Source: Escherichia phage vB_EcoP_PAS7
DNA length: 42,514 nucleotides
Sequence record: OQ921331.1
Strand: one strand, 5' to 3'
Shown piece by piece: positions 1 to 40,018 of this stretch. Made by a program: the position numbers and the translations under genes. Numbering within the stretch: the stretch's first letter is position 1; each line of letters opens with the position of its first letter. Below the pieces are notes generated by a model, which was not told where the DNA came from, did not search any database, and saw nothing but the letters and a program-made list of their open reading frames with translations.

Positions 1-600
1 ATGGCGGTAGTAAGAAAGCAGCGTAGAGTTGACGGTAAGAAGCAGAACTACTATTGGGATACTGAATTATGTATTGAGGTAGCAGCTCCTGTAAGGAAAA
101 AGCACTATAGCATAGCTAATCCTATGCAAGGCTTGATAGGTTACGCTGTGATGCACGATAGCGAGCTTAAACAAGGTATAACAGACGCGTTTGCTAACTT
201 TAACGGTAGTCAGATGCGTAACGGTTTAACTGGTATCAGTATACCTAAGTTGATTGAGTTAGCAGATACACAACCAGAGCTATATAGTACTGAGCATCCA
301 GAGAGTACTAACCATGCTGCGTATGATGCAGCGCTTACTATGCTTCTAGTATTAGTGCGTGAACGTATCCCTGAATGGGAAGAGGCGTACAGATATGATA
401 TGCATAATAGTGGGTTAAATATCGTTGATTTAATGTGTGAACAAGGCTATGACACTGATAACTATACCGGTGCTATAGCTAATAGTCTTAATCAGGTTTG
501 GAGTGAAGGTAAGCTCTTAGTAGGCACTGAGGCTAACAAGCATTGGCTTAAATCTCAGGGATTTTCTAAACTGCGTTCCCAGCGTAATAGATACATTTGA
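1..600 (+). CDS. hypothetical early protein, possibly 5'-truncated by the window edge; weak DEDD-exonuclease-like motifs
   Basis: ORF track, 199 aa. Contains WDTE and NHAAYDAALTMLL, resembling Exo I (DxE) and Exo III (HxAxxD) motifs of DnaQ-like exonucleases. Motif-level only. Confidence 0.35.
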   Translation: MAVVRKQRRVDGKKQNYYWDTELCIEVAAPVRKKHYSIANPMQGLIGYAVMHDSELKQGITDAFANFNGSQMRNGLTGISIPKLIELADTQPELYSTEHPESTNHAAYDAALTMLLVLVRERIPEWEEAYRYDMHNSGLNIVDLMCEQGYDTDNYTGAIANSLNQVWSEGKLLVGTEANKHWLKSQGFSKLRSQRNRYI

Positions 601-614
601 CTAGTGAGGACATT

Positions 615-791
615 ATGGATAAAGCTAATTGGCAAGGTTATAAAACTCATGCAGATATGTTTGAGTTTCACAATAGAATTAACAACTACGCTTATCAGAG
701 ACTTAAAGCAGAGCAGGAGCTAGCAGAGCTTAGGCTACTAGCTTATAAGGAAGGGAAGGTATTCAACAATGAAGATTGGAAGAGATTTTAA
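615..791 (+). CDS. hypothetical early protein
   Basis: ORF track 597..791 begins at TTG; the in-frame ATG at 615 has a GTGAGGA RBS about 6 nt upstream. Confidence 0.4.
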   Translation: MDKANWQGYKTHADMFEFHNRINNYAYQRLKAEQELAELRLLAYKEGKVFNNEDWKRF

Positions 792-810
792 AGAAATTTG
801 AAAATAGTTG

Positions 811-839
811 TTGACTTACCTGTTTTGTAGAGGTATAGT
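811..839. promoter_or_regulatory. sigma70-like early promoter P1 (TTGACT-17-TATAGT)
   Basis: -35 TTGACT at 811-816, 17-nt spacer, -10 TATAGT at 834-839; same architecture as P2-P4. Confidence 0.6.
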
Positions 840-874
840 TACATCACACCACAACGAGGTAGGAAATAAAGAAG

Positions 875-1045
875 ATGAACATTCAGAGCATGAACTTCCC
901 GGTAATTATTAAAGATGGTAAGTCAGTTATTACTTTTACTAGCAAGGAAGAAGGTACTTACGAAAGCGGTACAGCTTGCATGTCCAGCCTAGAAGATATG
1001 ATTGTGCGTGTACAGGTTGGTAAGGCTTCAATAGTAACCGAGTAA
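875..1045 (+). CDS. small hypothetical protein (56 aa)
   Basis: ATG at 875 downstream of P1, stop TAA at 1043-1045; below the ORF-track size cutoff, found by manual translation (MNIQSMNFPVIIKDGK...). Confidence 0.3.
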   Translation: MNIQSMNFPVIIKDGKSVITFTSKEEGTYESGTACMSSLEDMIVRVQVGKASIVTE

Positions 1046-1200
1046 CGGTAAGCGCAGGCACGGAGCAGAGCACTAGCCAGCAAGTTAGCGGGAACGATAA
1101 GCCGCTGCCCTCCTGAAGAATCGGGGTAGATAAATAGGTTCTGAGCGTAACGTAGCGTCCTCGGGTTATACAGAGGGAATTACATGAGAAGCTAAGAGAC
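1038..1200 (+). ncRNA. candidate structured RNA element, copy 1 of 3 (divergent copy)
   Basis: Shares ACCGAG, ACGATAAGC, GCCCTCCTGAAG and a hairpin (stem AGAATC 1117-1122 / GGTTCT 1137-1142, loop GGGGTAGATAAATA) with copies 2 and 3; the stem covaries between copies. Confidence 0.4.
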
Positions 1201-1272
1201 AAAGGCTTCGCTAAGATAAGTGCTCTTAGTTAAGCGTTGCATACCGCAGCGCAGACTTAAGAGGATTTAATT

Positions 1273-1374
1273 ATGGGACGTATATTTGGCACTACCTTTC
1301 TAATCGCCGCTACTATCTTTAACATTACACTGCCGTTTCTTGCTATCTATGGCTTAATCATGCTGTTCGCTTAA
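1273..1374 (+). CDS. small hydrophobic membrane peptide (33 aa)
   Basis: AAGAGGA RBS then ATG at 1273; translation MGRIFGTTFLIAATIFNITLPFLAIYGLIMLFA is a single predicted TM helix. Confidence 0.35.
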   Translation: MGRIFGTTFLIAATIFNITLPFLAIYGLIMLFA

Positions 1375-1384
1375 GGAGATTACT

Positions 1385-1624
1385 ATGACTAACTTCAAAA
1401 CTATGATTGCTGGTATCTTGGCAGCTGCTGCTGTTACCTTCTCTATTAAGGATGCTCAGGCTGTTCCTAACAGCATTGAACTCTGCAACTGGGGCAAATG
1501 GGCGTACGCTCAGAACATCACGCTACAGCAGCTAGTAGACACGTTAAACAGCGTTGAAGCTATGCCGATTGATGATAGAATGCAGGTAGTAGAGTGCTTT
1601 GTAGAGGAGATGTCTAAATCATGA
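1385..1624 (+). CDS. small secreted/periplasmic protein with N-terminal signal peptide
   Basis: AAGGAG RBS 7 nt upstream; N-terminus MTNFKTMIAGILAAAAVTFSIKDAQA resembles a Sec signal peptide with an AQA cleavage site. Confidence 0.5.
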   Translation: MTNFKTMIAGILAAAAVTFSIKDAQAVPNSIELCNWGKWAYAQNITLQQLVDTLNSVEAMPIDDRMQVVECFVEEMSKS

Positions 1625-1749
1625 ACGAATGGTATGAAGAGGCAATGCCGTGGCTTATCTGGGCCTTAGGCTTCCTGATTGTATATATGATTGCTAGTTA
1701 CGCTGACGACGCTAAGATTGATTCTAAAGAGGAAGATAAAGATGCTTGA
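1621..1749 (+). CDS. small membrane protein (42 aa)
   Basis: ATG at 1621 overlaps the upstream stop (ATGA); translation MNEWYEEAMPWLIWALGFLIVYMIASYADD... has one TM segment; stop TGA at 1747-1749. Confidence 0.3.
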   Translation: MNEWYEEAMPWLIWALGFLIVYMIASYADDAKIDSKEEDKDA

Positions 1750-1999
1750 TATTATTCCCAACAACAAAGCTGCTAATGACGATAGATTCCAAGAATGTGA
1801 TTTCGAGGAGTATCGTCAGTACGAGGCATTGAGTGTAACGAAGGGAATGGCTAAGCGCGTATGGTTACATAGATATTATGTAGGTAAGTTCGCACGTGAG
1901 GAGCACGTGCGAGTTTACAATACGCAAGAGGCTGCTAAGGCTCAGCAAGCGGTGCTAGGCGGTACTGTTACTGCCCTGCTTGAAACTGGCTTAATCTAA
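1742..1999 (+). CDS. hypothetical early protein
   Basis: ORF track 1691..1999; the in-frame ATG at 1742 has an AAAGAGGAAG RBS. Confidence 0.45.
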   Translation: MLDIIPNNKAANDDRFQECDFEEYRQYEALSVTKGMAKRVWLHRYYVGKFAREEHVRVYNTQEAAKAQQAVLGGTVTALLETGLI

Positions 2000-2014
2000 T
2001 TCAGGGCGCGCATT

Positions 2015-2770
2015 ATGTTTGATTTAACTACTACGAACACAGAACAGACCATGTCTAGTCTGGACTTCTTGAATAACATTATTAATCCGGCGCGTGTAGC
2101 AGCAGGGGAGAGGGAGGTTAGAAATAGGGATTTTATCAAACGCGTAGAAGACGAGTTGGACGATTTAACGGCGGGCGAAACTTTCGTTCGCTTCGGTAAT
2201 ACAGTAACTTATTACAATCTAACCTTAGAGCAGATGACTCTAATAGGTATGCGTGAATCTAAAGCTGTGCGTCGCTCAGTGTTAGAAACTCTGAAGAAGC
2301 TGCAACGTAAGGAGACTGACGAAGAGATTATGATGCGCGGATATATGCTGACTGTTAAGAAGTACGAGCAGTTGCAGCAAACGCTTATCATGAAGGACGC
2401 GGTCATTGAAGTACAAGAAGAGCAAATTCATAATCTACAGAACCTGTTTAATGAAGGTATGACTCCTTCGGCATTCGTTAAGCAACTGAATGGCTGTAAT
2501 GCTAATGCTGTGTCGTCCTATCTAGAGCAGCTAGGTTGGATTTATTCTCGTGAACGTAAAGGAGGTAAGGATTGGTTTGCTTATGCAAGCTCACGTGATA
2601 AATATCTGCGTCAATCAAGTTACTGCCCTAACCCTGCTTATCCTAACGTGCGTATTCATACGGTACAGTTAACTAAGCAAGGCGCTGTTAAGCTCTATGA
2701 GATGTACTTAGACAGTAAACTTCCTATGCGTAAAGTATGGGATGGTAAATTCACCCACGACGTACTGTAA
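2015..2770 (+). CDS. putative Rha/KilAC-type antirepressor-like regulatory protein
   Basis: 251 aa; the C-terminal stretch FVKQLNGCNANAVSSYLEQLGWIYSRERKGGKDWFAYAS resembles the KilA-C/ORF6C pattern and the N-terminus resembles Rha-like domains. Recalled-pattern match only. Confidence 0.3.
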   Translation: MFDLTTTNTEQTMSSLDFLNNIINPARVAAGEREVRNRDFIKRVEDELDDLTAGETFVRFGNTVTYYNLTLEQMTLIGMRESKAVRRSVLETLKKLQRKETDEEIMMRGYMLTVKKYEQLQQTLIMKDAVIEVQEEQIHNLQNLFNEGMTPSAFVKQLNGCNANAVSSYLEQLGWIYSRERKGGKDWFAYASSRDKYLRQSSYCPNPAYPNVRIHTVQLTKQGAVKLYEMYLDSKLPMRKVWDGKFTHDVL

Positions 2771-2780
2771 GGAGGTTGAG

Positions 2781-2948
2781 ATGCACAATATTTCTAACCC
2801 TGAAGAAATGAAGGATCTGGCACGTCACCTTCTCGAAGCGCTGGATTATAGTACGGCTACTTCTGATGATGGTATGGTATGGTTAGAGAACTTTGAAGTA
2901 GGTATCTTGAGGGACTACATTGAGTATTTAGAAAATAAATTAAAATAA
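2781..2948 (+). CDS. hypothetical small acidic protein
   Basis: ORF track 2742..2948; ATG at 2781 is preceded by an AAGGAGG RBS. Confidence 0.45.
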   Translation: MHNISNPEEMKDLARHLLEALDYSTATSDDGMVWLENFEVGILRDYIEYLENKLK

Positions 2949-2951
2949 GTG

Positions 2952-2980
2952 TTGACGGTATGAGATGAGCAGCGTATAGT
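2952..2980. promoter_or_regulatory. sigma70-like early promoter P2 (TTGACG-17-TATAGT)
   Basis: -35 at 2952-2957, 17-nt spacer, -10 TATAGT at 2975-2980. Confidence 0.6.
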
Positions 2981-2986
2981 TAATCT

Positions 2987-3110
2987 CATCAAGACGTTAC
3001 CGAGAAACGATAAGTCGGCGCCCTTCTGAATCTTCTGGGTGGATAAAACGAAGATGAGCGGTTCCTCCCGTCCACGGATAATTCAGTGGGTCTGAGATGA
3101 AAGTAGTTTT
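2987..3110 (+). ncRNA. candidate structured RNA element, copy 2 of 3
   Basis: Starts at the predicted P2 transcription start. Hairpin stem ATCTTC 3030-3035 / GAAGAT 3050-3055 with loop TGGGTGGATAAAAC; downstream block CGGTTCCTCCCGTCCACGGATAATTCAGTG nearly identical to copy 3. Confidence 0.5.
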
Positions 3111-3158
3111 ACAAAGCCTTCTGCGGAGGGCTTCAATAAAACCACTAAGGAGATAAAG

Positions 3159-3485
3159 ATGAACGCTAAGGCTCAAGCACGTCGTTTCGGTATTTCTGTA
3201 GAAGCAGCTAAAGAGATGGAACGTAACCGTACTGAACTGGTGCAGCTTGCTCAGAAGCCGGAAGGTACTGAAGCACGTAAGGCGCTTAAGAAGTTAATGA
3301 CTCATACTTACAAAGCACAGTCCATTCCCAGCAATGACTTCTCTGATAAAGTATCTCAGCGCGGCAGTAAAGTAGCGGAGTATAAAGAACGCGGCGAACG
3401 CACTTGCCGTCCTAGCAGTAAGACGGATATTAAAGTTAATAGTTACTTTGCATCTAAATCACGTACTCCTAAGGGGATTAAATAA
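3159..3485 (+). CDS. hypothetical early protein (basic)
   Basis: ORF track, 108 aa; AAGGAGATAAAG RBS. Confidence 0.5.
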   Translation: MNAKAQARRFGISVEAAKEMERNRTELVQLAQKPEGTEARKALKKLMTHTYKAQSIPSNDFSDKVSQRGSKVAEYKERGERTCRPSSKTDIKVNSYFASKSRTPKGIK

Positions 3486-3589
3486 TGGACCTTAATACGG
3501 CTTGGCAGATGGTAATGTGGCCTGTATGCGTCGTAATAGCAATCATCCTGATAATCGCGACTGAAGTAGAGAAGAGGAACAAGAAATGA
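3485..3589 (+). CDS. small membrane peptide (34 aa)
   Basis: ATG overlaps the upstream stop (TAATG); MDLNTAWQMVMWPVCVVIAIILIIATEVEKRNKK has one TM segment; stop TGA at 3587-3589. Confidence 0.3.
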   Translation: MDLNTAWQMVMWPVCVVIAIILIIATEVEKRNKK

Positions 3590-3759
3590 TTCAAGAGGAT
3601 GATTTTGATACTTGGTATAACATTCACGTAAGGCACCGTGCTCGTGAGGAAGCTACTAGGAGGAAACTAGCAGCGCTTAATCGCGGGCACTCTGAGAAGT
3701 ATGCTAAGAAGTTAGCTTCTGAAACTTACAACGAATACCTGACGAGGAACTTAAAATGA
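3586..3759 (+). CDS. small hypothetical protein (57 aa), paralog of 3756..3917
   Basis: ATGA overlap with neighbours; C-terminus KYAKKLASETYNEYLTRNLK parallels HAKKLAQGIYSEYLKRYTE in the next ORF. Confidence 0.35.
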   Translation: MIQEDDFDTWYNIHVRHRAREEATRRKLAALNRGHSEKYAKKLASETYNEYLTRNLK

Positions 3760-3917
3760 CTGAACGTGAGATGTGGTATGAAGAATATGTTAAAAAACTT
3801 GCCGCCCAAGCTGCCACTGCTGCTTATCTGGTAGAACTTAAGAAACACTCTGAAGCTCACGCTAAGAAATTAGCGCAGGGTATTTACAGCGAATACTTGA
3901 AGAGGTATACAGAATGA
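3756..3917 (+). CDS. small hypothetical protein (53 aa), paralog of 3586..3759
   Basis: ATGA-coupled; manual translation MTEREMWYEEYVKKLAAQAATAAYLVELKKHSEAHAKKLAQGIYSEYLKRYTE. Confidence 0.35.
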   Translation: MTEREMWYEEYVKKLAAQAATAAYLVELKKHSEAHAKKLAQGIYSEYLKRYTE

Positions 3918-4042
3918 CACAGCACCAGAAAGCACAGCAACTAGCTAAGAACTACTACACCTTCCTGATTAACAATGAATGTAACACCTGTTTCGCTTGG
4001 AATGCAGCTATGGCCCTTTTCAAACTGGAGATGCAGAAATGA
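3914..4042 (+). CDS. small hypothetical protein (42 aa)
   Basis: ATGA-coupled; MTQHQKAQQLAKNYYTFLINNECNTCFAWNAAMALFKLEMQK. Confidence 0.3.
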   Translation: MTQHQKAQQLAKNYYTFLINNECNTCFAWNAAMALFKLEMQK

Positions 4043-4215
4043 CTGACCTTAACCCTGAACTGATTGTAATGCGTAATGATGAAGTAACTGTACAGAACCT
4101 AGCTCGCGAGTACGATGCGCGGACTGAGCTGCATGAATACTACAAAGCTAAGGCTGACCGTGTAGGTCTAACATTAGAAGCTTATTGCAAACGCTTTGGC
4201 GTTAAACTTCACTAA
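4039..4215 (+). CDS. small hypothetical protein
   Basis: In frame with ORF track 3997..4215; ATG at 4039 overlaps the upstream stop. Confidence 0.4.
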   Translation: MTDLNPELIVMRNDEVTVQNLAREYDARTELHEYYKAKADRVGLTLEAYCKRFGVKLH

Positions 4216-4225
4216 AGAGACAGAT

Positions 4226-4555
4226 ATGTTGCCAGTAAACGAAGTAGTCGGGCAGTACTGGCGTATGCTTGAGACTCAAAGCAGCTTAGGCCGTAAGACA
4301 TTGCAAGATATACCGATAGAGCTGCGCAGGCTCTGCCCTTTGAAATGGTGTACTGATTGGCAGTATCGTGAAGGTATGCGCCTGCTGGTAGGTTATTACA
4401 GCTATGATAACGAGAGAGCTTCAGAAGTCCTTCAGCGCATAGATTTTAATGTAATAAGGGAGTTGCAGGAGAAAGGGTATGAAGGTGCTAAGCAAGCGTT
4501 TAAGGATGCTTGCTTAGACTATTATGAATGGCAAGTATCGTACAGAGGTATCTAA
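4226..4555 (+). CDS. hypothetical early protein
   Basis: ORF track 4196..4555; in-frame ATG at 4226 with an AAAGAGACAG RBS. Confidence 0.45.
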   Translation: MLPVNEVVGQYWRMLETQSSLGRKTLQDIPIELRRLCPLKWCTDWQYREGMRLLVGYYSYDNERASEVLQRIDFNVIRELQEKGYEGAKQAFKDACLDYYEWQVSYRGI

Positions 4556-4706
4556 TGAACTTCGTAGAACATAATTTAAAGATTTCACCCATCAAGACAG
4601 GTTATAGCAGTATCTACAGACTAGACCAGAAGCATGGGCCTGAAGATAGTCCTAATGCTAGTACAGTATTCCTAACAGATGATAACATTAAGGAGTTAAT
4701 CAACTC

Positions 4707-5480
4707 ATGGCTGATGAACTCTGGCTCAGGACGGCAAAGCGCTTGGCTGTTGGACAAACTGAACGCTTTAGGTGCTGCGGAAGAACAGCAGCAGCCGTAA
4801 TAAGAAACGAGACTGATAAATGGTCCTGCTCCTGCTATCGTTGCAAGAGCTATCACGTAGAACGTAAGCAGTATGCGCAATTAGCAGCACCTGAAGTACT
4901 GGGGCGCGAGTTACCCGCCCCTCAGGACCTGAAGCGCCTGCCTGAACTGGATGCAGGGCTTCAGCAGTTCCTTTACGGATTCTTAATATCAAAAGGTATC
5001 TGGCCTGACATGGCTGGAGATGTTTATTACTCAGAACAATACAAGAGGTTAGTATGGAAATTATCAACGGTCAGTTACATAGCGCGAGCATTGCACGAGT
5101 ATCAGCAACCGAAATGGGTCGTAATGGGGAAGCCGATGCAGTATGCAGCCGCGACGAATACGACGGGTTCATTGATAGTATTGACGGAGGATTACCTTTC
5201 GGCTTTCAAAGTTCAGCAAGTCACGGAGAGGTATTCATCTCTACAAGTTACGGCGGTAGCGTTGCTTGGGACAAGATTACCGCTGACTCTGAAGGCTGGG
5301 CTTATTAAGTTAGGTAAGCCTGTAGTGTGTATGCTTGACGATGATAAAGCTGGCTGGGATGGTACAGTCAGTGTAATAAAACAGCTTAAACCTTTCCTGC
5401 CAGTCTATGATAGGCATTTAGATGTAGACCCTAAAGCCGCTCATTGCGGTAAGATACTTGGAGCATTTGATGGACTTTAA
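4707..5480 (+). CDS. DNA primase (zinc ribbon plus TOPRIM)
   Basis: AAGGAG RBS; N-terminal Cys cluster RCCGR...CSCYRC; TOPRIM-like CMLDDDKAGWDG. A separate primase and helicase is typical of phiKMV-like phages. Confidence 0.7.
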   Translation: MADELWLRTAKRLAVGQTERFRCCGRTAAAVIRNETDKWSCSCYRCKSYHVERKQYAQLAAPEVLGRELPAPQDLKRLPELDAGLQQFLYGFLISKGIWPDMAGDVYYSEQYKRLVWKLSTVSYIARALHEYQQPKWVVMGKPMQYAAATNTTGSLIVLTEDYLSAFKVQQVTERYSSLQVTAVALLGTRLPLTLKAGLIKLGKPVVCMLDDDKAGWDGTVSVIKQLKPFLPVYDRHLDVDPKAAHCGKILGAFDGL

Positions 5481-6744
5481 TTTACTACGCGCTTTCTGTG
5501 AACGTAAGGTAATGGATAGGTTGTACGAACAGACGCCTAAGTCCTTGCTAGCACCTGATACGGTAGCGATGATTGGTTGGCTGCAACTGTACTTCGCAAC
5601 TTATCCTGACTCTAACGAAGTTAACTTTGAGATGATGAATACGCTCTTGGATATGCGAGGGACACATCTTCAGAAAGAGCAGCTGGATATTATGAAGCAT
5701 ATGCTTAAGACTATTCAGAACGTCCCTACTGAGCTTGTAGCAGGTACAGTTAAGACACTGAATGAGCTAGCTTACTCTGGCGAGATGGCTGCACTAGTGA
5801 GCAAGTATCAGGCAGGTGATGAAATAGATTTCGTACAGGAAGCTAAAGCACTTGAGCGTAAGTACTCTGGTGTAGTAGCTGCTAATGATTCATTACTTAA
5901 ATGGGAAGATGGAGGTGTAGATGATATTCTCGCGGCTACTGATGAGTCTGGTGGTCTTAAGCTTACTGTGTTCAGTGAGTTGGCTAGAAACATTCGCGGC
6001 TTGCGGGGTGGTGATTGTGTCGCTGTGGCTGCTCCTGTTGACGCTGGTAAAACTTCTCTCCTTGCTGCTGCAGTAGTTAGCTTAGCTGAGCAGATGCATG
6101 AGCAGAAGGAGATTTACGCGGAGCGTCCTATACTGTGGCTGGTAAATGAATCATTAGCCAAGCGCACTGTTCCTCGTATCTATCAGGCAGCTACTGGGCT
6201 GACTCTTCAGCAGATTGTAGAGCAGCATAAAGAAGGTAAGTTCGCTGATAAGTATCTGAAGAAGGTTGGGACGTGGGATAAGATTCGCGTTAAGGATGCG
6301 CACAGTATGAATCTGGGGCAGATTTCAACCTTACTGGAGGAAATGAAACCTGCTGTTCTAGTAGTAGATATGGTGAGTGGTATCAAGGGCGCGAATGCTG
6401 ACTCAGAACATCAGGCACTGGAGCGTACTTGGCAGGAACTGCGCATCTTAGGCTGTGAGCATGACTGTATTATCATTGGTAGTATGCAGCTATCGGCAGA
6501 AGGTTACGATATGCTCTATCCCCCACTGACTGCTATGAAGCAATCACGCATCGGAGTACAGGGTGCATTAGACCTTTGTATTATGATGGGAAGATTGAAT
6601 GTGAATGATAAGCCGGACATGGCTAACATTCGCGGAATCTCTACCCCAAAATCAAAATTAACTAAGTCCGGCTGTCAGAGCTATGTTCAATTTCAGGTTG
6701 AATTTGACGGAGGACGTTGTCAGTTTAAGGAGGGTACATTATGA
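5470..6744 (+). CDS. replicative DNA helicase (DnaB/T7 gp4-like)
   Basis: Walker A AAPVDAGKTSLL and Walker B-like LVVDMV; ORF track start 5458 is TTG, the ATG at 5470 has a GGAG RBS. Confidence 0.7.
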   Translation: MDFNLLRAFCERKVMDRLYEQTPKSLLAPDTVAMIGWLQLYFATYPDSNEVNFEMMNTLLDMRGTHLQKEQLDIMKHMLKTIQNVPTELVAGTVKTLNELAYSGEMAALVSKYQAGDEIDFVQEAKALERKYSGVVAANDSLLKWEDGGVDDILAATDESGGLKLTVFSELARNIRGLRGGDCVAVAAPVDAGKTSLLAAAVVSLAEQMHEQKEIYAERPILWLVNESLAKRTVPRIYQAATGLTLQQIVEQHKEGKFADKYLKKVGTWDKIRVKDAHSMNLGQISTLLEEMKPAVLVVDMVSGIKGANADSEHQALERTWQELRILGCEHDCIIIGSMQLSAEGYDMLYPPLTAMKQSRIGVQGALDLCIMMGRLNVNDKPDMANIRGISTPKSKLTKSGCQSYVQFQVEFDGGRCQFKEGTL

Positions 6745-7166
6745 GCGAATGTATAGAACATAACCAGAAGGGCAACAAAGCTGGTTACGGCAATGGTTAC
6801 TGGAACGGTGAACAGGTTATGCTTCACCGCTTAGCCTATTGCTTTAACAAGCAAATACCTGTAAGTGAAATTAAAGGTAGTGTAGTGATGCACACCTGTG
6901 ATAACCCTCGCTGCATTAACCCAACGCACTTACGCTTGGGTACTCAGGATGAAAACATGAAAGATATGCAAGGCAAGGGAAGGATGAGCCAGGGCAGTAA
7001 GCATTACATATCTAAACTTACTGAGGAGGATGTTAAGTACATACGTGAGAATTATATACCACGGCATCCAAAGTTTGGAGGTAAGGCGCTTGCTGCTAAG
7101 TTTGGTATAAATCCGGCATCCCTGTGTCAAATACGAAAAGGCCTACGCTGGAAATCCGTAAGCTAA
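6741..7166 (+). CDS. HNH endonuclease
   Basis: HNH-type motif HTCDNPRCINPTHLRLGTQDEN; AAGGAGGG RBS; sits between helicase and DNA polymerase. Confidence 0.65.
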   Translation: MSECIEHNQKGNKAGYGNGYWNGEQVMLHRLAYCFNKQIPVSEIKGSVVMHTCDNPRCINPTHLRLGTQDENMKDMQGKGRMSQGSKHYISKLTEEDVKYIRENYIPRHPKFGGKALAAKFGINPASLCQIRKGLRWKSVS

Positions 7167-7218: not shown

Positions 7219-7371
7219 ATGTTAAAGTCAGAAGACATTACAGAGCAGGACTACGAGGTTATCCGTGCGATAGCTAATAACCGTAAGCAGGTTAAACGCT
7301 ACACGCTGGATAGCAGTGAGATGATTGTACGAGCAGCACTTAACAGAGCACGGCGCGAGGGGTGGAAATGA
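7219..7371 (+). CDS. small hypothetical protein (50 aa)
   Basis: GGGAGGAAG RBS, ATG at 7219, stop TGA at 7369-7371 overlapping the DNA polymerase start. Confidence 0.35.
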   Translation: MLKSEDITEQDYEVIRAIANNRKQVKRYTLDSSEMIVRAALNRARREGWK

Positions 7372-8582
7372 GCAGCATACTGATTTGGGATATTGAAACG
7401 CAGAACGTACCTTACTATGGCGGGGTTGCTACACCTTACTGCCCAGATAACTACATTGTGGAATCAGGCTTCAGGATTGATAGAACTAATCCAGATGGTA
7501 CGGTGACGTGCAGTGATGTAGGTAGCGTGCGTTACGAGTCGCGGGAGGAGTTCATCTCAGCACCTAGTAGTCAGTGGTTGCCTATTCAGGACGATACTTG
7601 GTTAATGGTAATGCATAACGCCGCATATGAGATTAGCTGGGCGTTGACGTTTGCTAGGGAAGAGTTTGAAGCATTCCTGAAACGGGGAGGGCGCGTATTC
7701 GATACAATGCAAGGCGAGTACATTGCCTCAGACTTCCAAAACCTTTACCCATCATTAGATGAGACGGCTCCTAAGTACGGCGGCAGCCACAAGGTTGACG
7801 GCGTTAAACTGCTATGGCAGCAGGGCGTGTTAACAGCAGATATTGACCCTGTACTGCTGCATGAGTATCTAACAGGGCCAGAAGGTGATATCGTAAACAC
7901 AGCGTTATGCTTCTACGGGCAGTGTGCAGTGTTCGCTGAGCGTGGGCAGATGCCTATGGTCTGGGAAAGGATGGATAGTGTACTGGCCTTAGCCTACTGC
8001 GAGTTCAACGGTGTGTACGTAGACATGCCTACAGCCAGAGCTAACCAGAAGGAGCAGGAGGACGCTATAGCAGAGCTGAAGCAGACGCTGCAAGGCTTCT
8101 TACCTGAACTGCCTGAGGGATTTGAGTTCAACTGGAACAGCGGTTATCATATGAGTGCGTTGGTGTACGGCGGTACGGTTAAGTACAAGTGCAAGGTCCC
8201 GTATGACCCGCCAAAGTTTGTAAAGTTCGATGCCTACCTGGCCGATGTTAAGGGTACTCAGCAATACATAGATGTTAATGATTGGCAAGATAGCTGGACG
8301 TACAGCCGTGAAGTGTTTAAGTCTGGACGTAATAAAGGTCTGCCCAAAGTTTACAAGGTGGAAAGTTCAGAGCAGTCTATGAAGTGGGGTGAGCGCCTGT
8401 ATAAGTTCGAAGGGCTTGTGCACATCCAAGACCTACCAGCAGTATTGCAAGAGAAGTACGCAGAGCGCGGAGAGTTCCGAGGTGCTCAGACATTGGCAGA
8501 TGGTACACCTGTGTTCAGTACAGGGACTGATGCTATGAAAGAACTGGCTAACTATTTTATTGGGATGGAAGAGAATGAGTAA
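7368..8582 (+). CDS. DNA polymerase part I (3'-5' exonuclease domain and N-terminal polymerase region)
   Basis: Exo I motif IWDIETQN near the N-terminus; ends at TAA 8580-8582, overlapping the start of part II in another frame. Confidence 0.7.
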   Translation: MSSILIWDIETQNVPYYGGVATPYCPDNYIVESGFRIDRTNPDGTVTCSDVGSVRYESREEFISAPSSQWLPIQDDTWLMVMHNAAYEISWALTFAREEFEAFLKRGGRVFDTMQGEYIASDFQNLYPSLDETAPKYGGSHKVDGVKLLWQQGVLTADIDPVLLHEYLTGPEGDIVNTALCFYGQCAVFAERGQMPMVWERMDSVLALAYCEFNGVYVDMPTARANQKEQEDAIAELKQTLQGFLPELPEGFEFNWNSGYHMSALVYGGTVKYKCKVPYDPPKFVKFDAYLADVKGTQQYIDVNDWQDSWTYSREVFKSGRNKGLPKVYKVESSEQSMKWGERLYKFEGLVHIQDLPAVLQEKYAERGEFRGAQTLADGTPVFSTGTDAMKELANYFIGMEENE

Positions 8583-9729
8583 CAAGGCTTCGGAGTTCTT
8601 CAAGGCATACAGTGAGATGACCTTGCGTGAGAAAGATTTAGGCTTCTATGAGAAGAAGGAATTTAACAAGGACGGTAGCCTGCGTAAGACTACAGGTATG
8701 CTTCCGTATGTAATCCCTCAGAAGGAAGACGGCAGCGGCATCATTCATCACAGATTGAATCACTGCTCAACCACGACCGGACGACTATCAGCATCTAACC
8801 CGAATATGCAGCAGTTGCCGCGTGAATCTAAGGTTAAGCAGATTCTGCGTAGTCGTTACGGTGAGCAAGGTATGATTGCTCAGTGTGACTACTCAGCTAT
8901 GGAAGTTGTAATGGGCTGTGTAATAACAGGTGATAAGAAACTACTATCCTTGCTTGAAGCTGGTACAGATATGCACTGCTATCGTTTAGCATTCCAAGAG
9001 GGTATGCCTTATGAAGAAGTCTACGAGCTTTGCCATAACCCGGATGCACCTAACCATAAGGAATGGAAGAAGAAACGAACAGCAATCAAAACCTTCAGCT
9101 TCGCAGCGCAGTATGGAGCTTCCGCTAAAGGACTGGCGTTCGCCTCTGGTGCCAGCCTGAAGGACGCTGAGAAGTTCTTAGCTAACGAAGAAGCCCTGTT
9201 CCCTGAATCTATTAAGTACCGTGATGTAATTGCAGCAGAGGTAAATCGTACAGCACTGTTAGAGCCTATGCGCCGCGAGCAATCAGATGATGGTAGCTGG
9301 CGTATCTATCGGGAAGGCTATTTTACTGCTCCTTGTGGTACTCGTTACCGCTTCCGTCAGAAACCTGTATGGCGTGAAGGTAAGCAGGTCATGGACTTTA
9401 AACCTACAGAGATGGCTAACTATCCATTTCAAGGTTCAGGTTCTCTGCTTATGCTTATTGCGATGGGTATGATTCTGCGCGCAGGATTAGCTACGGATTG
9501 GGGTAACGGTAGTTGGTGCTTGTTAGCAACTGTACATGACTCCGTATATTGTGACTGTAAAGATGAGTCAACGGCGAGGGAAGTAGGTCAATTAATTAAG
9601 AAATGTATGGAAGGTGCAAGAGATAGAATGCTGCAACTTTGGCCTAACTTCGGAATACTACAGGACGTTAAATTCCCTGCCGAGTGTGGTATTGGTAAAT
9701 CATTTAAAGAGGAGCAGGTACTTGGCTAA
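8575..9729 (+). CDS. DNA polymerase part II (family A palm/fingers)
   Basis: Motif A CDYSAMEVV, motif B RTAIKTFSFAAQYGAS, motif C VHDSVYCD. ATG at 8575 is in the frame of ORF track 8560..9729. Confidence 0.7.
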   Translation: MSNKASEFFKAYSEMTLREKDLGFYEKKEFNKDGSLRKTTGMLPYVIPQKEDGSGIIHHRLNHCSTTTGRLSASNPNMQQLPRESKVKQILRSRYGEQGMIAQCDYSAMEVVMGCVITGDKKLLSLLEAGTDMHCYRLAFQEGMPYEEVYELCHNPDAPNHKEWKKKRTAIKTFSFAAQYGASAKGLAFASGASLKDAEKFLANEEALFPESIKYRDVIAAEVNRTALLEPMRREQSDDGSWRIYREGYFTAPCGTRYRFRQKPVWREGKQVMDFKPTEMANYPFQGSGSLLMLIAMGMILRAGLATDWGNGSWCLLATVHDSVYCDCKDESTAREVGQLIKKCMEGARDRMLQLWPNFGILQDVKFPAECGIGKSFKEEQVLG

Positions 9730-10225
9730 AGTTACTAAACCTATACCGGAAGGCATACGGGAATTTTGGAGATATGATTCTGAGAGTGGGAAATTAATAT
9801 GCATACAAAACATAAAGCGCACTAAGTACAGTGAAGGCATAGTTGCAGCTAGTCTTACAACTACAGGTAATTATCTAAAGCTGAATTTTAATAAGGTAAG
9901 CTACCTTCAGCATCGGGTAGCATGGTTCCTTTACTATAATGAACAACCTCCTGAAGTTATAGACCACAAGGACGGTAACGGCCTTAACAACGCTATAAAC
10001 AACCTGCGTGCTGCAGATGATGGTTGTAACATGATGGACATTACTGTAACTGCTAAATCCACTACAGGTATTAAAGGTGTCATGCCTGTACGGGGAGGTA
10101 AGCTGTTCCGTGCCGAAGTATGTGTAGATGGTAAGCGCTACCAGAAGCACAGCAAGGACGTAGCTTTCTTAGAGCAGTGGGTACAGGCTAAGCGTAAAGA
10201 ATTACACGGAGAGTTTTATAAATAG
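9722..10225 (+). CDS. HNH-AP2 homing endonuclease (paralog 1 of 3)
   Basis: HNH motif EVIDHKDGNGLNNAINNLRA followed by an AP2-like region; no in-frame ATG, likely TTG start at 9722 with an AAGAGGAG RBS; paralogous to 12767..13219 and 19681..20157. Confidence 0.6.
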   Translation: MAKVTKPIPEGIREFWRYDSESGKLICIQNIKRTKYSEGIVAASLTTTGNYLKLNFNKVSYLQHRVAWFLYYNEQPPEVIDHKDGNGLNNAINNLRAADDGCNMMDITVTAKSTTGIKGVMPVRGGKLFRAEVCVDGKRYQKHSKDVAFLEQWVQAKRKELHGEFYK

Positions 10226-10379: not shown

Positions 10380-10510
10380 CATAGCAAGACGTTAACCGAG
10401 GACGATAAGCGGTTGCCCTTCTGAAGTCTCTGGGTAGATAAAACGAGACTGAACGGTTCCTCCCGTACACGGATAATTCAGTGTGATGCAGATGAGAGTC
10501 TAGGAGAAAT
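10380..10510 (+). ncRNA. candidate structured RNA element, copy 3 of 3
   Basis: AGACGTTAACCGAGGACGATAAGCGG...; hairpin stem AGTCTC 10425-10430 / GAGACT 10445-10450 with loop TGGGTAGATAAAAC; downstream block matches copy 2. Confidence 0.5.
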
Positions 10511-10866: not shown

Positions 10867-11612
10867 ATGAACTATTTAGATATCTGCGAGAAGTACAATG
10901 TAGGAAGCCTGCGCGACGCTAACCTGCGCGACGCTGACCTGTACGGCGCTAACCTGTACGGCGCTGACCTGCGCGACGCTAACCTGTACGGCGCTAACCT
11001 GTGCGGCGCTGACCTGCGCGACGCTAACCTGTACGGCGCTAACCTGTGCGGCGCTGACCTGCGCGGCGCTAACCTGCGCGGCGCTAACCTGCGCGGCGCT
11101 AACCTGTACGGCGCTAACCTGCGCGGCGCTAACCTGCGCCTAACCTGCGCGGCGCTAACCTGTACGGCGCTAACCTGCGCGGCGCTAACCTGCGCGGCGC
11201 TAACCTGTGCGGCGCTAACCTGTGCGGCGCTAACCTGCGCGGCGCTAACCTGCGCGGCGCTAACCTGTACGGCGCTAACCTGCGCGACGCTAACCTGCGC
11301 GACGCTGACCTGTGCGGCGCTGACCTGCGCGACGCTGACCTGTGCGGCGCTAACCTGCGCGGCGCTGACCTGCATGGGACTGACTTGATTGTAATTTATG
11401 GGGAACAGTACTTTATTAGCCTATACAAGGGAACAGTACGCGCAGGTTGTCAGTCGCATACGATAGCGGAGTGGCGAAGTTTTAGTAAGGAAGAAGTAAT
11501 TGCTATGGACGGGCGTAATTCTCTTAAATACTACCCACGTCTTTTAGACATCATTGATTTTTACTGTGGTAAGGGCGAGCGTCCTGATTGGGTAATGAAA
11601 ATAAACAAGTAA
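10867..11612 (+). pseudogene. pentapeptide-repeat protein, frame disrupted at about 11139-11141 by a 4-nt indel in the tandem-repeat region
   Basis: Frame 1 reads A(D/N)LXX pentapeptide repeats ([15 protein letters not shown]...) up to 11139. The repeat unit AACCTGCGCGGCGCT is shortened to AACCTGCGCCT at 11131-11141; the repeat frame continues in another frame to the stop at 11612, with a non-repeat C-terminal domain (ORF track 11385..11612). Confidence 0.55.
10921..11370. repeat. tandem 15-bp repeat array (about 30 units, consensus AACCTGCGCGGCGCT)
   Basis: Direct reading: 15-nt units with variants GAC/AAC, TAC/TGC/CGC and GGC/GAC; one truncated unit near 11131-11141. Confidence 0.9.
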
Positions 11613-12766: not shown

Positions 12767-13219
12767 ATGACTGAAGAGTTAATACGCGAATACCTTGCGC
12801 TAGACCCTTCTAGTCCTACTAATCTGAAGTGGATTAAGACTTCTGGCAGCCGGGTTAAGTTAGGGTCTGTGCAAGGTTATCTAAACTCGCATGGTTATGT
12901 TAAGGTTAAACTCAAAGGAAAGGCGCTGTCGCTGCATCGCGCAGTGTTCTTATTACATTATGGATACCTTCCATATGAGGTAGATCATGTAAATAGGGAT
13001 AAGACTGATAACAGACCTGATAATCTTAGAGCAGCAACTAGAAGCTCTAACTGCCATAATAAGAACTGCACGGGATTTAACTTTGATAAGAAGTCACAGA
13101 AGTTTAGAGTCCGTGTGCAAGTAACTACCACTAAGCGAATTACTGTAGGCTGGTATGATAGTCCATTTGAGGCTAGGGCAGCTTACTTAACGTTCAAAAC
13201 AGCTAACAATCTAATCTAA
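12767..13219 (+). CDS. HNH-AP2 homing endonuclease (paralog 2 of 3)
   Basis: EYLALDPSSPTNLKWIK N-terminus, HNH motif VDHVNRDKTDNRPDNLRA, AP2-like C-terminus; close paralog of 19681..20157. Confidence 0.65.
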   Translation: MTEELIREYLALDPSSPTNLKWIKTSGSRVKLGSVQGYLNSHGYVKVKLKGKALSLHRAVFLLHYGYLPYEVDHVNRDKTDNRPDNLRAATRSSNCHNKNCTGFNFDKKSQKFRVRVQVTTTKRITVGWYDSPFEARAAYLTFKTANNLI

Positions 13220-19255: not shown

Positions 19256-19684
19256 ATGAGCAATACATTAAACACAGCACAATACACAACACATCTCTAC
19301 AATTGGAACAACTCTTCTGATTACATAATCAGCATTGTTAAACAATTGCATGTATGGGGTATTGGTATCCAGTTAGGAATGGATGAGGAAGAGCATTTCC
19401 AGAAGGTTGTGCAAGAGATACAAGGACACAGTGTATTAGCAGTATTCAGCGGTGATGAGCTAATCGGAGGCGTAAGTATTATTCCTCAGTTATTAGAGAA
19501 TAGTCATTATACAGGTAAGAGTATGGCTACAGGATTTATGGTAGTCGAGCCTTATCACCCTAAAGCAGTTGCTACGCTCTACAGGAATTTAAAACGAATC
19601 GTTCGGGAGAACGGTGCAGACTGGCTTATATTCACACGTGCAGTATCTGACGTGGATTACTTACAGAAGGGGATTAAGCTTTGA
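19256..19684 (+). CDS. hypothetical protein
   Basis: ORF track, 142 aa. Confidence 0.45.
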   Translation: MSNTLNTAQYTTHLYNWNNSSDYIISIVKQLHVWGIGIQLGMDEEEHFQKVVQEIQGHSVLAVFSGDELIGGVSIIPQLLENSHYTGKSMATGFMVVEPYHPKAVATLYRNLKRIVRENGADWLIFTRAVSDVDYLQKGIKL

Positions 19685-20157
19685 AAGGTATTGAAGAATA
19701 CATAGCTTTAGACCCAAGTAGCCCTACGTATCTTAGCTGGATTAAGGCACCTCTTAGAGGACGTGTTAAAGTCGGCGAGCCGGCATTAATTTCCTTAAGC
19801 AAGACTAATTACTATCGTGGGAAGTTTCAGCAAAAGAACCTGCTTGCGCATCGCGTGGTGTACTACCTCGCTACTGGAATTGAACCTCCAGCAATGCTAG
19901 ACCATACAGACGGTAACAGGCAGAACAACAACCCAGATAACTTAAGGGCAGTAACTGCTCGAGAGAACAATCACAATAGGCATGCATGTAAAGGCTACCA
20001 CTGGCGAAGTAACAGAAATCACTGGTGCGCTCAGATACATGTAGATGGGAAGGAGATATACCTAGGCTCCTTTCAAACTGAAGCGGAAGCTAGGGCAGCT
20101 TATCTAGAAGGTAAGCGGATATACCACCCAAGTGCACCGGTACATTTACTTAACTAA
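19681..20157 (+). CDS. HNH-AP2 homing endonuclease (paralog 3 of 3)
   Basis: TTG start overlapping the upstream stop, AAGGGG RBS; EYIALDPSSPTYLSWIK, HNH motif LDHTDGNRQNNNPDNLRA, AP2-like C-terminus. Confidence 0.6.
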   Translation: MKGIEEYIALDPSSPTYLSWIKAPLRGRVKVGEPALISLSKTNYYRGKFQQKNLLAHRVVYYLATGIEPPAMLDHTDGNRQNNNPDNLRAVTARENNHNRHACKGYHWRSNRNHWCAQIHVDGKEIYLGSFQTEAEARAAYLEGKRIYHPSAPVHLLN

Positions 20158-38685: not shown

Positions 38686-38931
38686 ATGACTAGGTACGGA
38701 GCAGGTGCACACACTTTTCGATTTGGGAGTGGTGCACGGGACAGGATTGTAGTACCAGATGCAGGTACTACTGTAACGGTAGAGTACTGGTCTGGTACAG
38801 AGTGGGTTATGGACGTAGATTCACCAATTGACTCTCCAGCTACACTTTATACGCGGCTTGTACGTGTCCGCTTAACTGCGGATGGCGGCTTCTCCTTTGA
38901 TGTAGTGGAGGCTATTGATGAGTCTAATTAA
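38686..38931 (+). CDS. hypothetical protein
   Basis: ORF track, 81 aa; overlaps the start of the collagen-like gene. Confidence 0.4.
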
Positions 38932-40018
38932 TCAGCGCCGTCGTATCTCTAAGGGTGGCAATACCGGCGGTGGTGGCGGTACTGGGCCACAAGGACCTGT
39001 AGGGGAGCAAGGCCCTGTAGGGCCTATGGGTCCGGCAGGTGCAGATGGCCCAGTAGGTCCAGTAGGTCCAGTCGGTCCACAAGGTCCTCAAGGCCCAGCT
39101 GGGCCTCAGGGTCCGCAAGGTCTGCAAGGTCCTGAAGGTGTTCAAGGAGCTAAGGGAGATAAGGGCGATACTGGTCCAGCGGGGCCAGCGGGTCTCAACT
39201 TCCGTGCTGCTTGGGTTCCGGGCTTGACCTATGCTTTACAGGATTCAGTAGCCTACAATGGTAGTACTTGGTTTGCTAATTCGGCTATTGAGGCAGACGT
39301 AACGCCCGGTACTGATCCTCGTTGGGTGCTGCTTGCTATGCAGGGTACTAAGGGGGATACCGGACCTACAGGTCCACAGGGGCCTCGCGGAGTGCAAGGC
39401 GTGCCCGGAGACGTAGGCCCTCAGGGTCCGCAGGGTATAGCAGGCCCGCAGGGTATTCGCGGTCCTCAAGGTGATACCGGCGAGCAAGGTCCCGCAGGGC
39501 CACAGGGCGCTAGAGGTATACAGGGAGTTAAAGGCGATAAAGGCGACAAGGGTGATAAAGGGGATACAGGCGCTACTGGACCCCAAGGACCCGCAGGTCA
39601 AAATAATACCAATAATCCAGTATATACTACACAACTTGCAGTATCTACTAGCTATTCGGCAATAGCTATTCCTAATAACCCCGGAGTATCCTTAACGGTT
39701 AGACGTGTCAGCAATAATATTGAGTATTCATTTACTGGTAACTCCATTGCGGGTAGGTACTTCGACGTAGAATTAGTTAACTTCCCCTCAGCGGACGTAG
39801 TCAAAAGGTATCAATCTAACCATACAATAGCAGGTACTAGCCGCTATGTAGTAGGCGACCCCGCAGGCTACACTGGTACAGGATACAAGAAGATTCAAAT
39901 TACTGCAAGGGATTGGGGAGATAAGAATATTATTATCATAGACCTGTTCCACCTACAACGAGCTGGGGATGCTAACTTCAACATCGCCATTAGGATTGAG
40001 ACCTTTAAACTTCCTTAA
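38918..40018 (+). CDS. collagen-like (Gly-X-Y repeat) protein with C-terminal globular domain, possible fiber or receptor-binding protein
   Basis: Two G-X-Y blocks ([23 protein letters not shown]... and [19 protein letters not shown]...[13 protein letters not shown]); ATG at 38918 with a GGAGG RBS. Confidence 0.6.

Follow-up and report, generated by a model that had tools for sequence, protein, structure and literature searches.

The genome of Escherichia phage vB_EcoP_PAS7, a lytic podovirus that infects E. coli O103 and belongs to the new genus Cepavirus of the Slopekvirinae (PMC11522302), carries near its left end a gene whose product looks like an antirepressor. What might a protein of this kind do in a phage that appears to have no lysogeny to control? 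The first-pass annotation of the window (the whole stretch of DNA that was analyzed, 42,514 bp) had likened the N-terminus of the product to Rha and its C-terminus to the KilA-C/ORF6C family, and had favored a role as a host-directed regulator or growth inhibitor over a role as a component of a lysogeny switch. As described below, the protein belongs, as a diverged member, to a known antirepressor-like family that is notorious for shuffling, which is in itself an ordinary finding. The explanation that we favor, with a probability of roughly 50%, is that it is a mosaic Rha/KilAC-family protein, produced early and acting as a dimer, that would serve host takeover rather than a switch between lysis and lysogeny. 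The product of the ORF at 2015-2770 is identical to the GenBank entry "putative DNA-binding protein" of PAS7, and its parts can be laid out as follows.

2015..2770, + strand: complete ORF with an ATG start, 251 aa plus stop codon, as given in the ORF list; an accessory and probably early gene, the product of which is Rha-like / coiled-coil / KilAC-like

2015..2047, + strand: N-terminal leader MFDLTTTNTEQ, aa 1-11, predicted to be disordered (pLDDT <50 for aa 1-8)

2048..2305, + strand: N module, aa 12-97, a diverged Rha-type winged-helix-like domain with the motifs MSSLDFLNNIINPAR ... GMRESKAVRRSVL (from hhalign, PHROG, and AlphaFold2)

2318..2446, + strand: single uninterrupted helix of 43 residues, aa 102-144, a probable coiled-coil linker (from the AlphaFold2 model)

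2450..2710, + strand: C module, aa 146-232, a diverged KilAC/ANT-type domain consisting of a helix-turn-helix, then a sheet of four strands, and then a helix (from hhalign, PHROG, and AlphaFold2)

2720..2761, + strand: C-terminal tail motif LPMRKVWDGKFTHD, aa 236-249 (from the subfamily alignment)

The ORF is a real and functional gene under purifying selection, since the differences between its C half and that of its closest relative are mostly synonymous (dS 0.38, dN 0.033, dN/dS 0.087), and the encoded protein has 269 database homologs at E<=1e-3. The gene is located in the left-end early block and precedes the primase, helicase, and DNA polymerase genes; the gene for the phage RNA polymerase follows ~14 kb downstream. 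Based upon this position, it is probably expressed early. A sigma-70 promoter scan of positions 1-5000 returned 11 matches versus 10.1 expected from shuffling, and neither promoters nor terminators were above chance there. It should be noted that the next ORF downstream, as listed (2742-2948), shares 29 nt with the 3' end of the gene. A shorter and non-overlapping form of that ORF beginning at 2781 is more likely, because the colinear genome of a related phage (L002) has a 55-aa gene that corresponds to this start.

The genome had previously been described as apparently strictly lytic, with no integrase or repressor, and this held for all of the ORFs that were scanned, in agreement with the publication of PAS7 as a lytic phage (PMC11522302). 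The Pfam scan covered the ORFs of positions 1-20448, minus the helicase, DNA polymerase, and RNA polymerase ORFs, together with ten late-region ORFs, and among these there was no match to an integrase, a recombinase, or a CI-/Cro-type domain. The families that were seen in 1-20448 were primase-region, HNH, pentapeptide, phosphoesterase, endonuclease VII, and DUF families. All of the substantial ORFs of PAS7 lie on the + strand. The nearest annotated genome in the phage collection, that of vB_EcoP_P64441 (Autographivirales/Slopekvirinae; ~80% nucleotide identity to PAS7), has a T7-like layout, and none of its 53 features is annotated as an integrase or a repressor. The larger late ORFs of PAS7 were assigned by order and length, in which they match the structural and packaging genes annotated in P64441. 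The sole late-region ORF with no P64441 counterpart is 38915-40018, a 367-aa ORF between the holin and endolysin genes, for which the identity of an integrase could be ruled out, as it encodes a collagen-repeat protein (triple-helix repeats that match Pfam Collagen at E 8e-23); the annotation of P64441 shows no ORF at that place. A PADLOC search for defense systems gave no match for the ORF at 2015-2770 or its four neighboring ORFs, and Rfam gave no match over the whole 42,514-bp window.

The classical antirepressors, such as P22 Ant and P1 Ant1/2, resemble the PAS7 protein in their annotation label and in the PHROG names that it attracts (phrog_63 and phrog_130, both "anti-repressor Ant"). 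However, classical antirepressors inactivate a cognate repressor, whereas no cognate CI/C2-type repressor or immunity region for a P22 Ant-type function was found in the scanned ORFs of PAS7 or is annotated in P64441. The PHROG match itself is extensive, with phrog_63 aligned over aa 6-249 (E 5.3e-25) and further "anti-repressor" profiles (phrog_8235, phrog_1726, and phrog_130) matching the two halves, although PHROG names, like GenBank names, are annotation labels and not experiments. A Pfam scan of the 251-aa protein returned no match to Rha, ANT/KilAC (PF03374), ORF6C, or KilA-N (PF04383), with the first three absent even at E<=10. The protein therefore misses the gathering threshold of the Rha family (PF09669, Phage_pRha; 29.9 bits), and, beyond coiled-coil noise, the sole feature reported was a weak helix-turn-helix match, to GcrA-N, at aa 134-184. 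NCBIfam yielded nothing relevant, and both single-sequence and profile searches of the PDB yielded no match. Thus, the lack of any significant Rha or KilA-C profile match, which the first-pass annotation had named as the outcome that would speak against its reading, is what Pfam reports for the protein alone, whereas the profile-profile comparisons described next recover both families.

For the N module, we compared its profile by hhalign with a Rha profile assembled from 124 Pfam-annotated Rha domains. The match had a probability of 92.7% (E 4.3e-7) over 78 columns, with the whole domain in register, and it was 80% (1.4e-5) in the reverse direction; the probability did not exceed 0.4% in any of 20 column-shuffled controls. 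An earlier comparison with a small Rha profile of six sequences had given probabilities of only 5% and then 18%. The N module is a homolog of Rha at the profile level, albeit a diverged one, and the proposed resemblance of the N-terminus to Rha was borne out at the superfamily level. The N module also matches phrog_8235 (3e-8), phrog_63 (6e-7), and phrog_1726 (5e-6), in each case at profile positions that are also matched by three Rha-headed proteins, namely the Pfam-verified P0004 and P0009 and the product of the P64441 gene. PHROGs are built by remote-homology clustering, so these matches are supportive, but not independent. Compared with Pfam Phage_pRha (phage phi80 Rha, "Rha family transcriptional regulators"), the N module occupies the same position as the Pfam-verified Rha domains of orthologous mosaic genes, but it differs in having no Pfam match, an insertion of ~11 residues (FLNNIINPARV) after the start of the first helix, an invariant GMRESKAVR motif of its own, and a separate family of ~665 clusters. 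The leader that precedes it is not confined to proteins with this N module, as the MFDLTT(T) start is also present on the Rha-headed P0004, P0009, P0011, and P0026 and on the P64441 gene, i.e., on relatives with a different N module.

The extent of the N-module family was determined by searching 1.84 billion proteins with an HMM of the module, which returned 665 cluster representatives (50% identity) at E<=1e-3. We scanned a set of 110 proteins with Pfam, consisting of the window protein and 109 full-length representatives of the family, and found Rha matches at E<=0.01 in nine and ANT matches in 44. When the ten likeliest family members were rescanned singly, four had a Rha match in register with the module, all of them below threshold (the best at 28.6 bits versus 29.9). 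Named members of this MSSLDFLNNIINPAR...GMRESKAVRRSVL head family come from Proteus, Xenorhabdus, Aeromonas, Pectobacterium, Photobacterium, and other Gammaproteobacteria, and ~40% of the full-length members scanned pair the head with Pfam ANT/KilAC. With ~665 clusters, the family lacks a Pfam model, and one could be added.

The C module was treated in a similar manner. Its hhalign comparison with canonical KilAC, represented by 19 C-terminal KilAC-type sequences (three of which were scanned with Pfam and matched ANT at 1e-20 to 1e-31), gave a probability of 96% (E 2.7e-9) over 82 columns, covering aa 146-231. The PAS7 protein misses the Pfam ANT gathering threshold of 25.3 bits, and P0007, a relative with 88% identity, reaches only 15.4 bits. 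Full-length homologs at 41-47% identity (P0012, P0017, and P0023) barely pass at 27-29 bits, and homologs that share only the N module match ANT strongly, at 1e-20 to 1e-31. When searched by itself, the C part matches phrog_63 (8e-11) and phrog_130 (3e-7), and these matches cover the profile region to which a canonical KilAC protein also aligns. It is also positioned as expected for KilAC, behind a variable DNA-binding head, as judged from the AlphaFold2 model and from relatives with Rha-like, Rha, and KilA-N heads. The C half is therefore a diverged KilAC domain. ORF6C (PF10552) was absent from the protein itself (E<=10), from the 16 Pfam families (E<=0.01) detected in the 109 representatives, and from 20 relatives scanned singly. 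Accordingly, the KilA-C part of the earlier comparison stood, while its ORF6C part was not supported.

Beyond the end of the hhalign KilAC match lies the tail motif, which is conserved as LPM[KR]KxWDGxFTxD in P0002-P0023 and is absent from the canonical KilAC proteins P0071, P0105, and P0106. It is present in two of the 109 N-module family members. We regard this motif, specific to the KilAC subfamily of PAS7, as a candidate partner-binding peptide.

Structure prediction gave a similar division of the protein. The AlphaFold2 model, built from a 76-sequence alignment, has a pLDDT of 82.8. In this model, the head (aa 12-97) follows the order beta-alpha-alpha-beta-beta-beta-alpha-alpha, while the C domain (aa 151-232) is composed of two short helices, four strands, and one helix. 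A further AlphaFold2 model, of the N module, has the same order of elements and a pLDDT of 89. The long helix between them is probably a dimerization element, as suggested by what is a monomer model. Confidence falls along the C-terminal tail from a pLDDT of 85 to 57 and then 31. No solved structure resembling the head or the C domain was found by PDB sequence, profile, or Foldseek searches; in the Foldseek search against the PDB, there were no significant matches and only weak ones to winged-helix proteins. A BFVD fold search with the head mainly recovered close homologs in other phages, the remainder being weak matches to a "Regulatory protein", Bro-N, and "antirepressor" entries, a result that is supportive, though not decisive.

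Inspection of related phage genomes of ~43 kb revealed, at this position in the early region, a gene that shares the architecture but is assembled from different parts.

PAS7: the head is a Rha-like module; the C part is a diverged KilAC with tail

L002: the head is a Pfam Rha; the C part is a PAS7-type C module, 95% aa identity

L003 / L004: the head is a 75-aa KilA-N ORF, which is followed by a 189-aa ORF; the C part is a PAS7-type C module, 78% aa identity

P64441: the head is of the Rha type; the C part is a canonical-type KilAC

To either side of the locus, PAS7 and L002 are 90-96% identical at the DNA level. The homology disappears between 1716 and 2393 and is back from 2394, which is codon 127 and falls inside the linker helix. 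Because homology resumes at this codon, the recombination breakpoint of the head exchange is placed within the gene, at ~2394. In L003, a 44-kb phage contig, the KilA-N ORF (75 aa) and the linker + KilAC-like ORF (189 aa) are located 60 nt apart at 2976-3832 (equivalent to 5714-6570 of L004), which could mean that one gene has been split or frameshifted, or that there are genuinely two genes. The P64441 protein XXQ42876.1 ("DNA binding protein", 221 aa) shares with the PAS7 protein its locus, its first six residues (MFDLTT), and the head-linker-KilAC architecture, but past these first residues the two have no detectable pairwise similarity, and a tblastn search of the P64441 genome with the three PAS7 modules returned nothing. 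The XXQ42876.1 head resembles Pfam-verified Rha heads and has the same PHROG matches, while its C half resembles canonical KilAC and matches phrog_130. The early region of Koutsourovirus phiKDA1 has no homolog of the gene, and for this reason the gene is considered accessory. Nevertheless, a gene of this architecture has been kept at the locus in every Cepavirus-like genome examined, despite the swapping of its head. We regard the locus as a clean natural example of heads being swapped on a constant KilAC module, with the breakpoint mapped.

Homologs of the protein occur in temperate as well as virulent phages. In the lambdoid Hafnia phage yong2, the homolog is located directly after cI/CII, chromosomal homologs were found in Aeromonas, Providencia, and Xenorhabdus, and the IMG/VR matches are mostly on contigs of 35-44 kb. 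An Acinetobacter Obolenskvirus phage, which we take to be virulent, has a homolog annotated as "putative antirepressor", and the homologs recovered by the BFVD search of the head include those of IME253 and Sf12, both of which are T1-like virulent phages. Descriptions of Rha, Bro-N, or KilA-N heads being shuffled with KilAC go back to the early 2000s, and virulent phages are known to carry such genes. Since homologs are known in other virulent phages, a Rha/KilAC-type gene in a lytic genome is not unusual, and the oddity that had been implied for the PAS7 gene was overstated. This has some practical relevance, because "antirepressor" labels serve as temperate markers in the screening of phages for therapy and biocontrol. 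Here, such a gene occurs in a lytic phage whose scanned ORFs revealed neither an integrase nor a repressor, and PAS7-like phages should therefore not be rejected on the strength of this label by itself.

Published studies of KilAC proteins offer the closest guide to function. In AriS of the Listeria phage phi10403S (LMRG_02920), the KilAC domain inhibits the SOS response, probably through RecA, while the N domain, which alternates among AntA/B, Bro-N, and pRha, down-regulates genes of its own phage (PMC9043618). The KilA-C domain of phi11 Gp07 causes an irreversible block of E. coli division with filamentation (PMC5944126), and P1 KilA either kills the host or blocks its division (PMC8201110). 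Because KilAC domains inhibit SOS or division in all three of these proteins, a host-directed role is plausible for the PAS7 protein by analogy, and because no cognate repressor was found among the scanned ORFs, a host-directed regulator or growth inhibitor seems more likely than a lysogeny-switch part. AriS and the PAS7 protein have a common architecture, and both have been annotated "anti-repressor" without being classical repressor binders. However, AriS-like regulators belong to temperate Firmicutes prophages and their KilAC was described from Pfam, whereas the PAS7 protein misses Pfam ANT, has an extra conserved tail, and is encoded by a lytic T7-like phage. P1 KilA and phi11 Gp07 likewise combine a DNA-binding head with a KilA-C-type domain at the C-terminus, and their published inhibition of host growth or division, in KilA-C, would match what the first-pass annotation had proposed. 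P1 KilA has a further link to this locus in that the PAS7 relatives L003 and L004 carry a KilA-N ORF before a PAS7-type C module. The two differ from PAS7 in that they come from temperate phages and have a KilA-N or Bro-N head, while the PAS7 head is Rha-like. Since the PAS7 protein misses the Pfam gathering thresholds of both families, the transfer of function from the canonical KilAC proteins of Firmicutes prophages and P1 would be a long extrapolation.

With this in mind, the mechanism that we favor would begin with synthesis of the protein early in infection, from transcripts made by the host RNA polymerase. The protein would then dimerize via its long helix, its Rha-type head would bind DNA, and its KilAC domain and tail would bind a host protein. 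The outcome would be a contribution to host takeover, such as a damped RecA/SOS response or blocked cell division, with no control over a lysis-lysogeny switch. Given its weak GcrA-like helix-turn-helix signal, the C domain might also provide a second surface for binding DNA, instead of one for binding protein.

Several other roles were weighed against host takeover. The protein might act as an antirepressor directed at CI-type repressors that belong to resident prophages of the E. coli host, either inducing these prophages or neutralizing repressor-dependent immunity and exclusion, from which a lytic phage would gain. Lambdoid prophages are typically numerous in STEC hosts such as O103, and such a role would be consistent with the "anti-repressor Ant" annotation of the best PHROG matches, with the occurrence of full-length homologs in classical immunity regions of temperate phages and prophages (yong2 after cI/CII; the Aeromonas, Providencia, and Xenorhabdus chromosomes), and with most IMG/VR homologs being found on 35-44 kb contigs. 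We nevertheless consider it unlikely, as the PHROG and GenBank names are labels instead of experiments, the best-characterized KilAC proteins act upon SOS/RecA or division and not by repressor binding, and the free swapping of heads with the C module kept is not something that a repressor-specific binder would obviously need. A role in regulating the PAS7 program itself seems similarly doubtful. In this case, the head would bind sites on PAS7 DNA, for example repeated intergenic elements near early promoters, and either shut off or time early transcription, with KilAC serving as an oligomerization module or a second DNA-binding module. The helix-turn-helix character of both domains (a winged-helix-like head and the weak GcrA-N match in the C domain) and the down-regulation of its own phage's genes by the N domain of AriS (PMC9043618) both argue for this possibility, as do three intergenic elements of ~115 nt, one of which has a sigma-70-like promoter match directly upstream and one of which lies just downstream of the gene's operon. 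Against it, the gene is missing in Koutsourovirus phiKDA1, a phage with an otherwise similar genome layout, and its head is replaced by a non-orthologous Rha or KilA-N in near-identical relatives, which is hard to square with an essential and sequence-specific core role; in addition, no binding site was identified.

The mosaic and accessory nature of the gene and its divergence below the Pfam thresholds could also be taken to indicate a functionless passenger, i.e., a remnant acquired from a temperate phage by recombination that has no role in lytic growth. This is highly improbable. It is contradicted by the strong purifying selection (dN/dS 0.087), and the ORF is intact, its architecture has been retained at the locus in every Cepavirus-like genome examined, and its AlphaFold2 model is confident. 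Returning to host takeover, we would tentatively raise the possibility that the KilAC subfamily with the LPM[KR]KxWDGxFTHD tail is a portable effector that binds host factors and that was captured by a strictly lytic T7-like coliphage clade from temperate phages of Gammaproteobacteria. Head swaps (Rha-like, Rha, or KilA-N) at a recombination hot spot with its junction in the linker helix would have re-targeted this effector, and the tail would act as a short linear motif that docks on a host protein, for example RecA or a factor involved in division or transcription. If this is true, it would represent an uncharacterized host-takeover factor of the Autographivirales. It would be reasonable to include the C module and its conserved tail in a screen for toxicity or host partners in E. 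coli. The practical value of these findings is modest, and they hold no surprise for the specialist.

A few other features of the window are worth mentioning. The intergenic element of ~115 nt occurs in three copies (1077-1191, 2990-3104, and 10385-10499) that have 62-78% identity to the reference copy and many invariant columns. A sigma-70-like match, TTGACG-17-TATAGT (2952-2980), is located directly upstream of the second copy, and TTGACA is found upstream of the third. The element has no Rfam match, and its RNA folding z-scores of -1.3 to +1.1 on both strands give no sign of structure. Copies are also present in P64441, and the element could be a leader or a regulatory site. The pentapeptide-repeat gene (10867-11612) consists of near-perfect 15-nt tandem repeats, among which one unit near 11136 has only 11 nt; past this unit, the repeats shift to another frame, which takes them into the next ORF (11385-11612). 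As this one unit is 11 nt long and the repeat pattern changes frame after it, a 4-nt deletion has split the gene. This deletion could be either a real frameshift or slippage event or an assembly error in the repeat. There are also four HNH-type homing-endonuclease ORFs dispersed in the replication region (6741-7166, 9614-10225, 12767-13219, and 19681-20157), and the DNA polymerase is split over two overlapping ORFs (7362-8582 and 8560-9729), an arrangement that is also seen in P64441.
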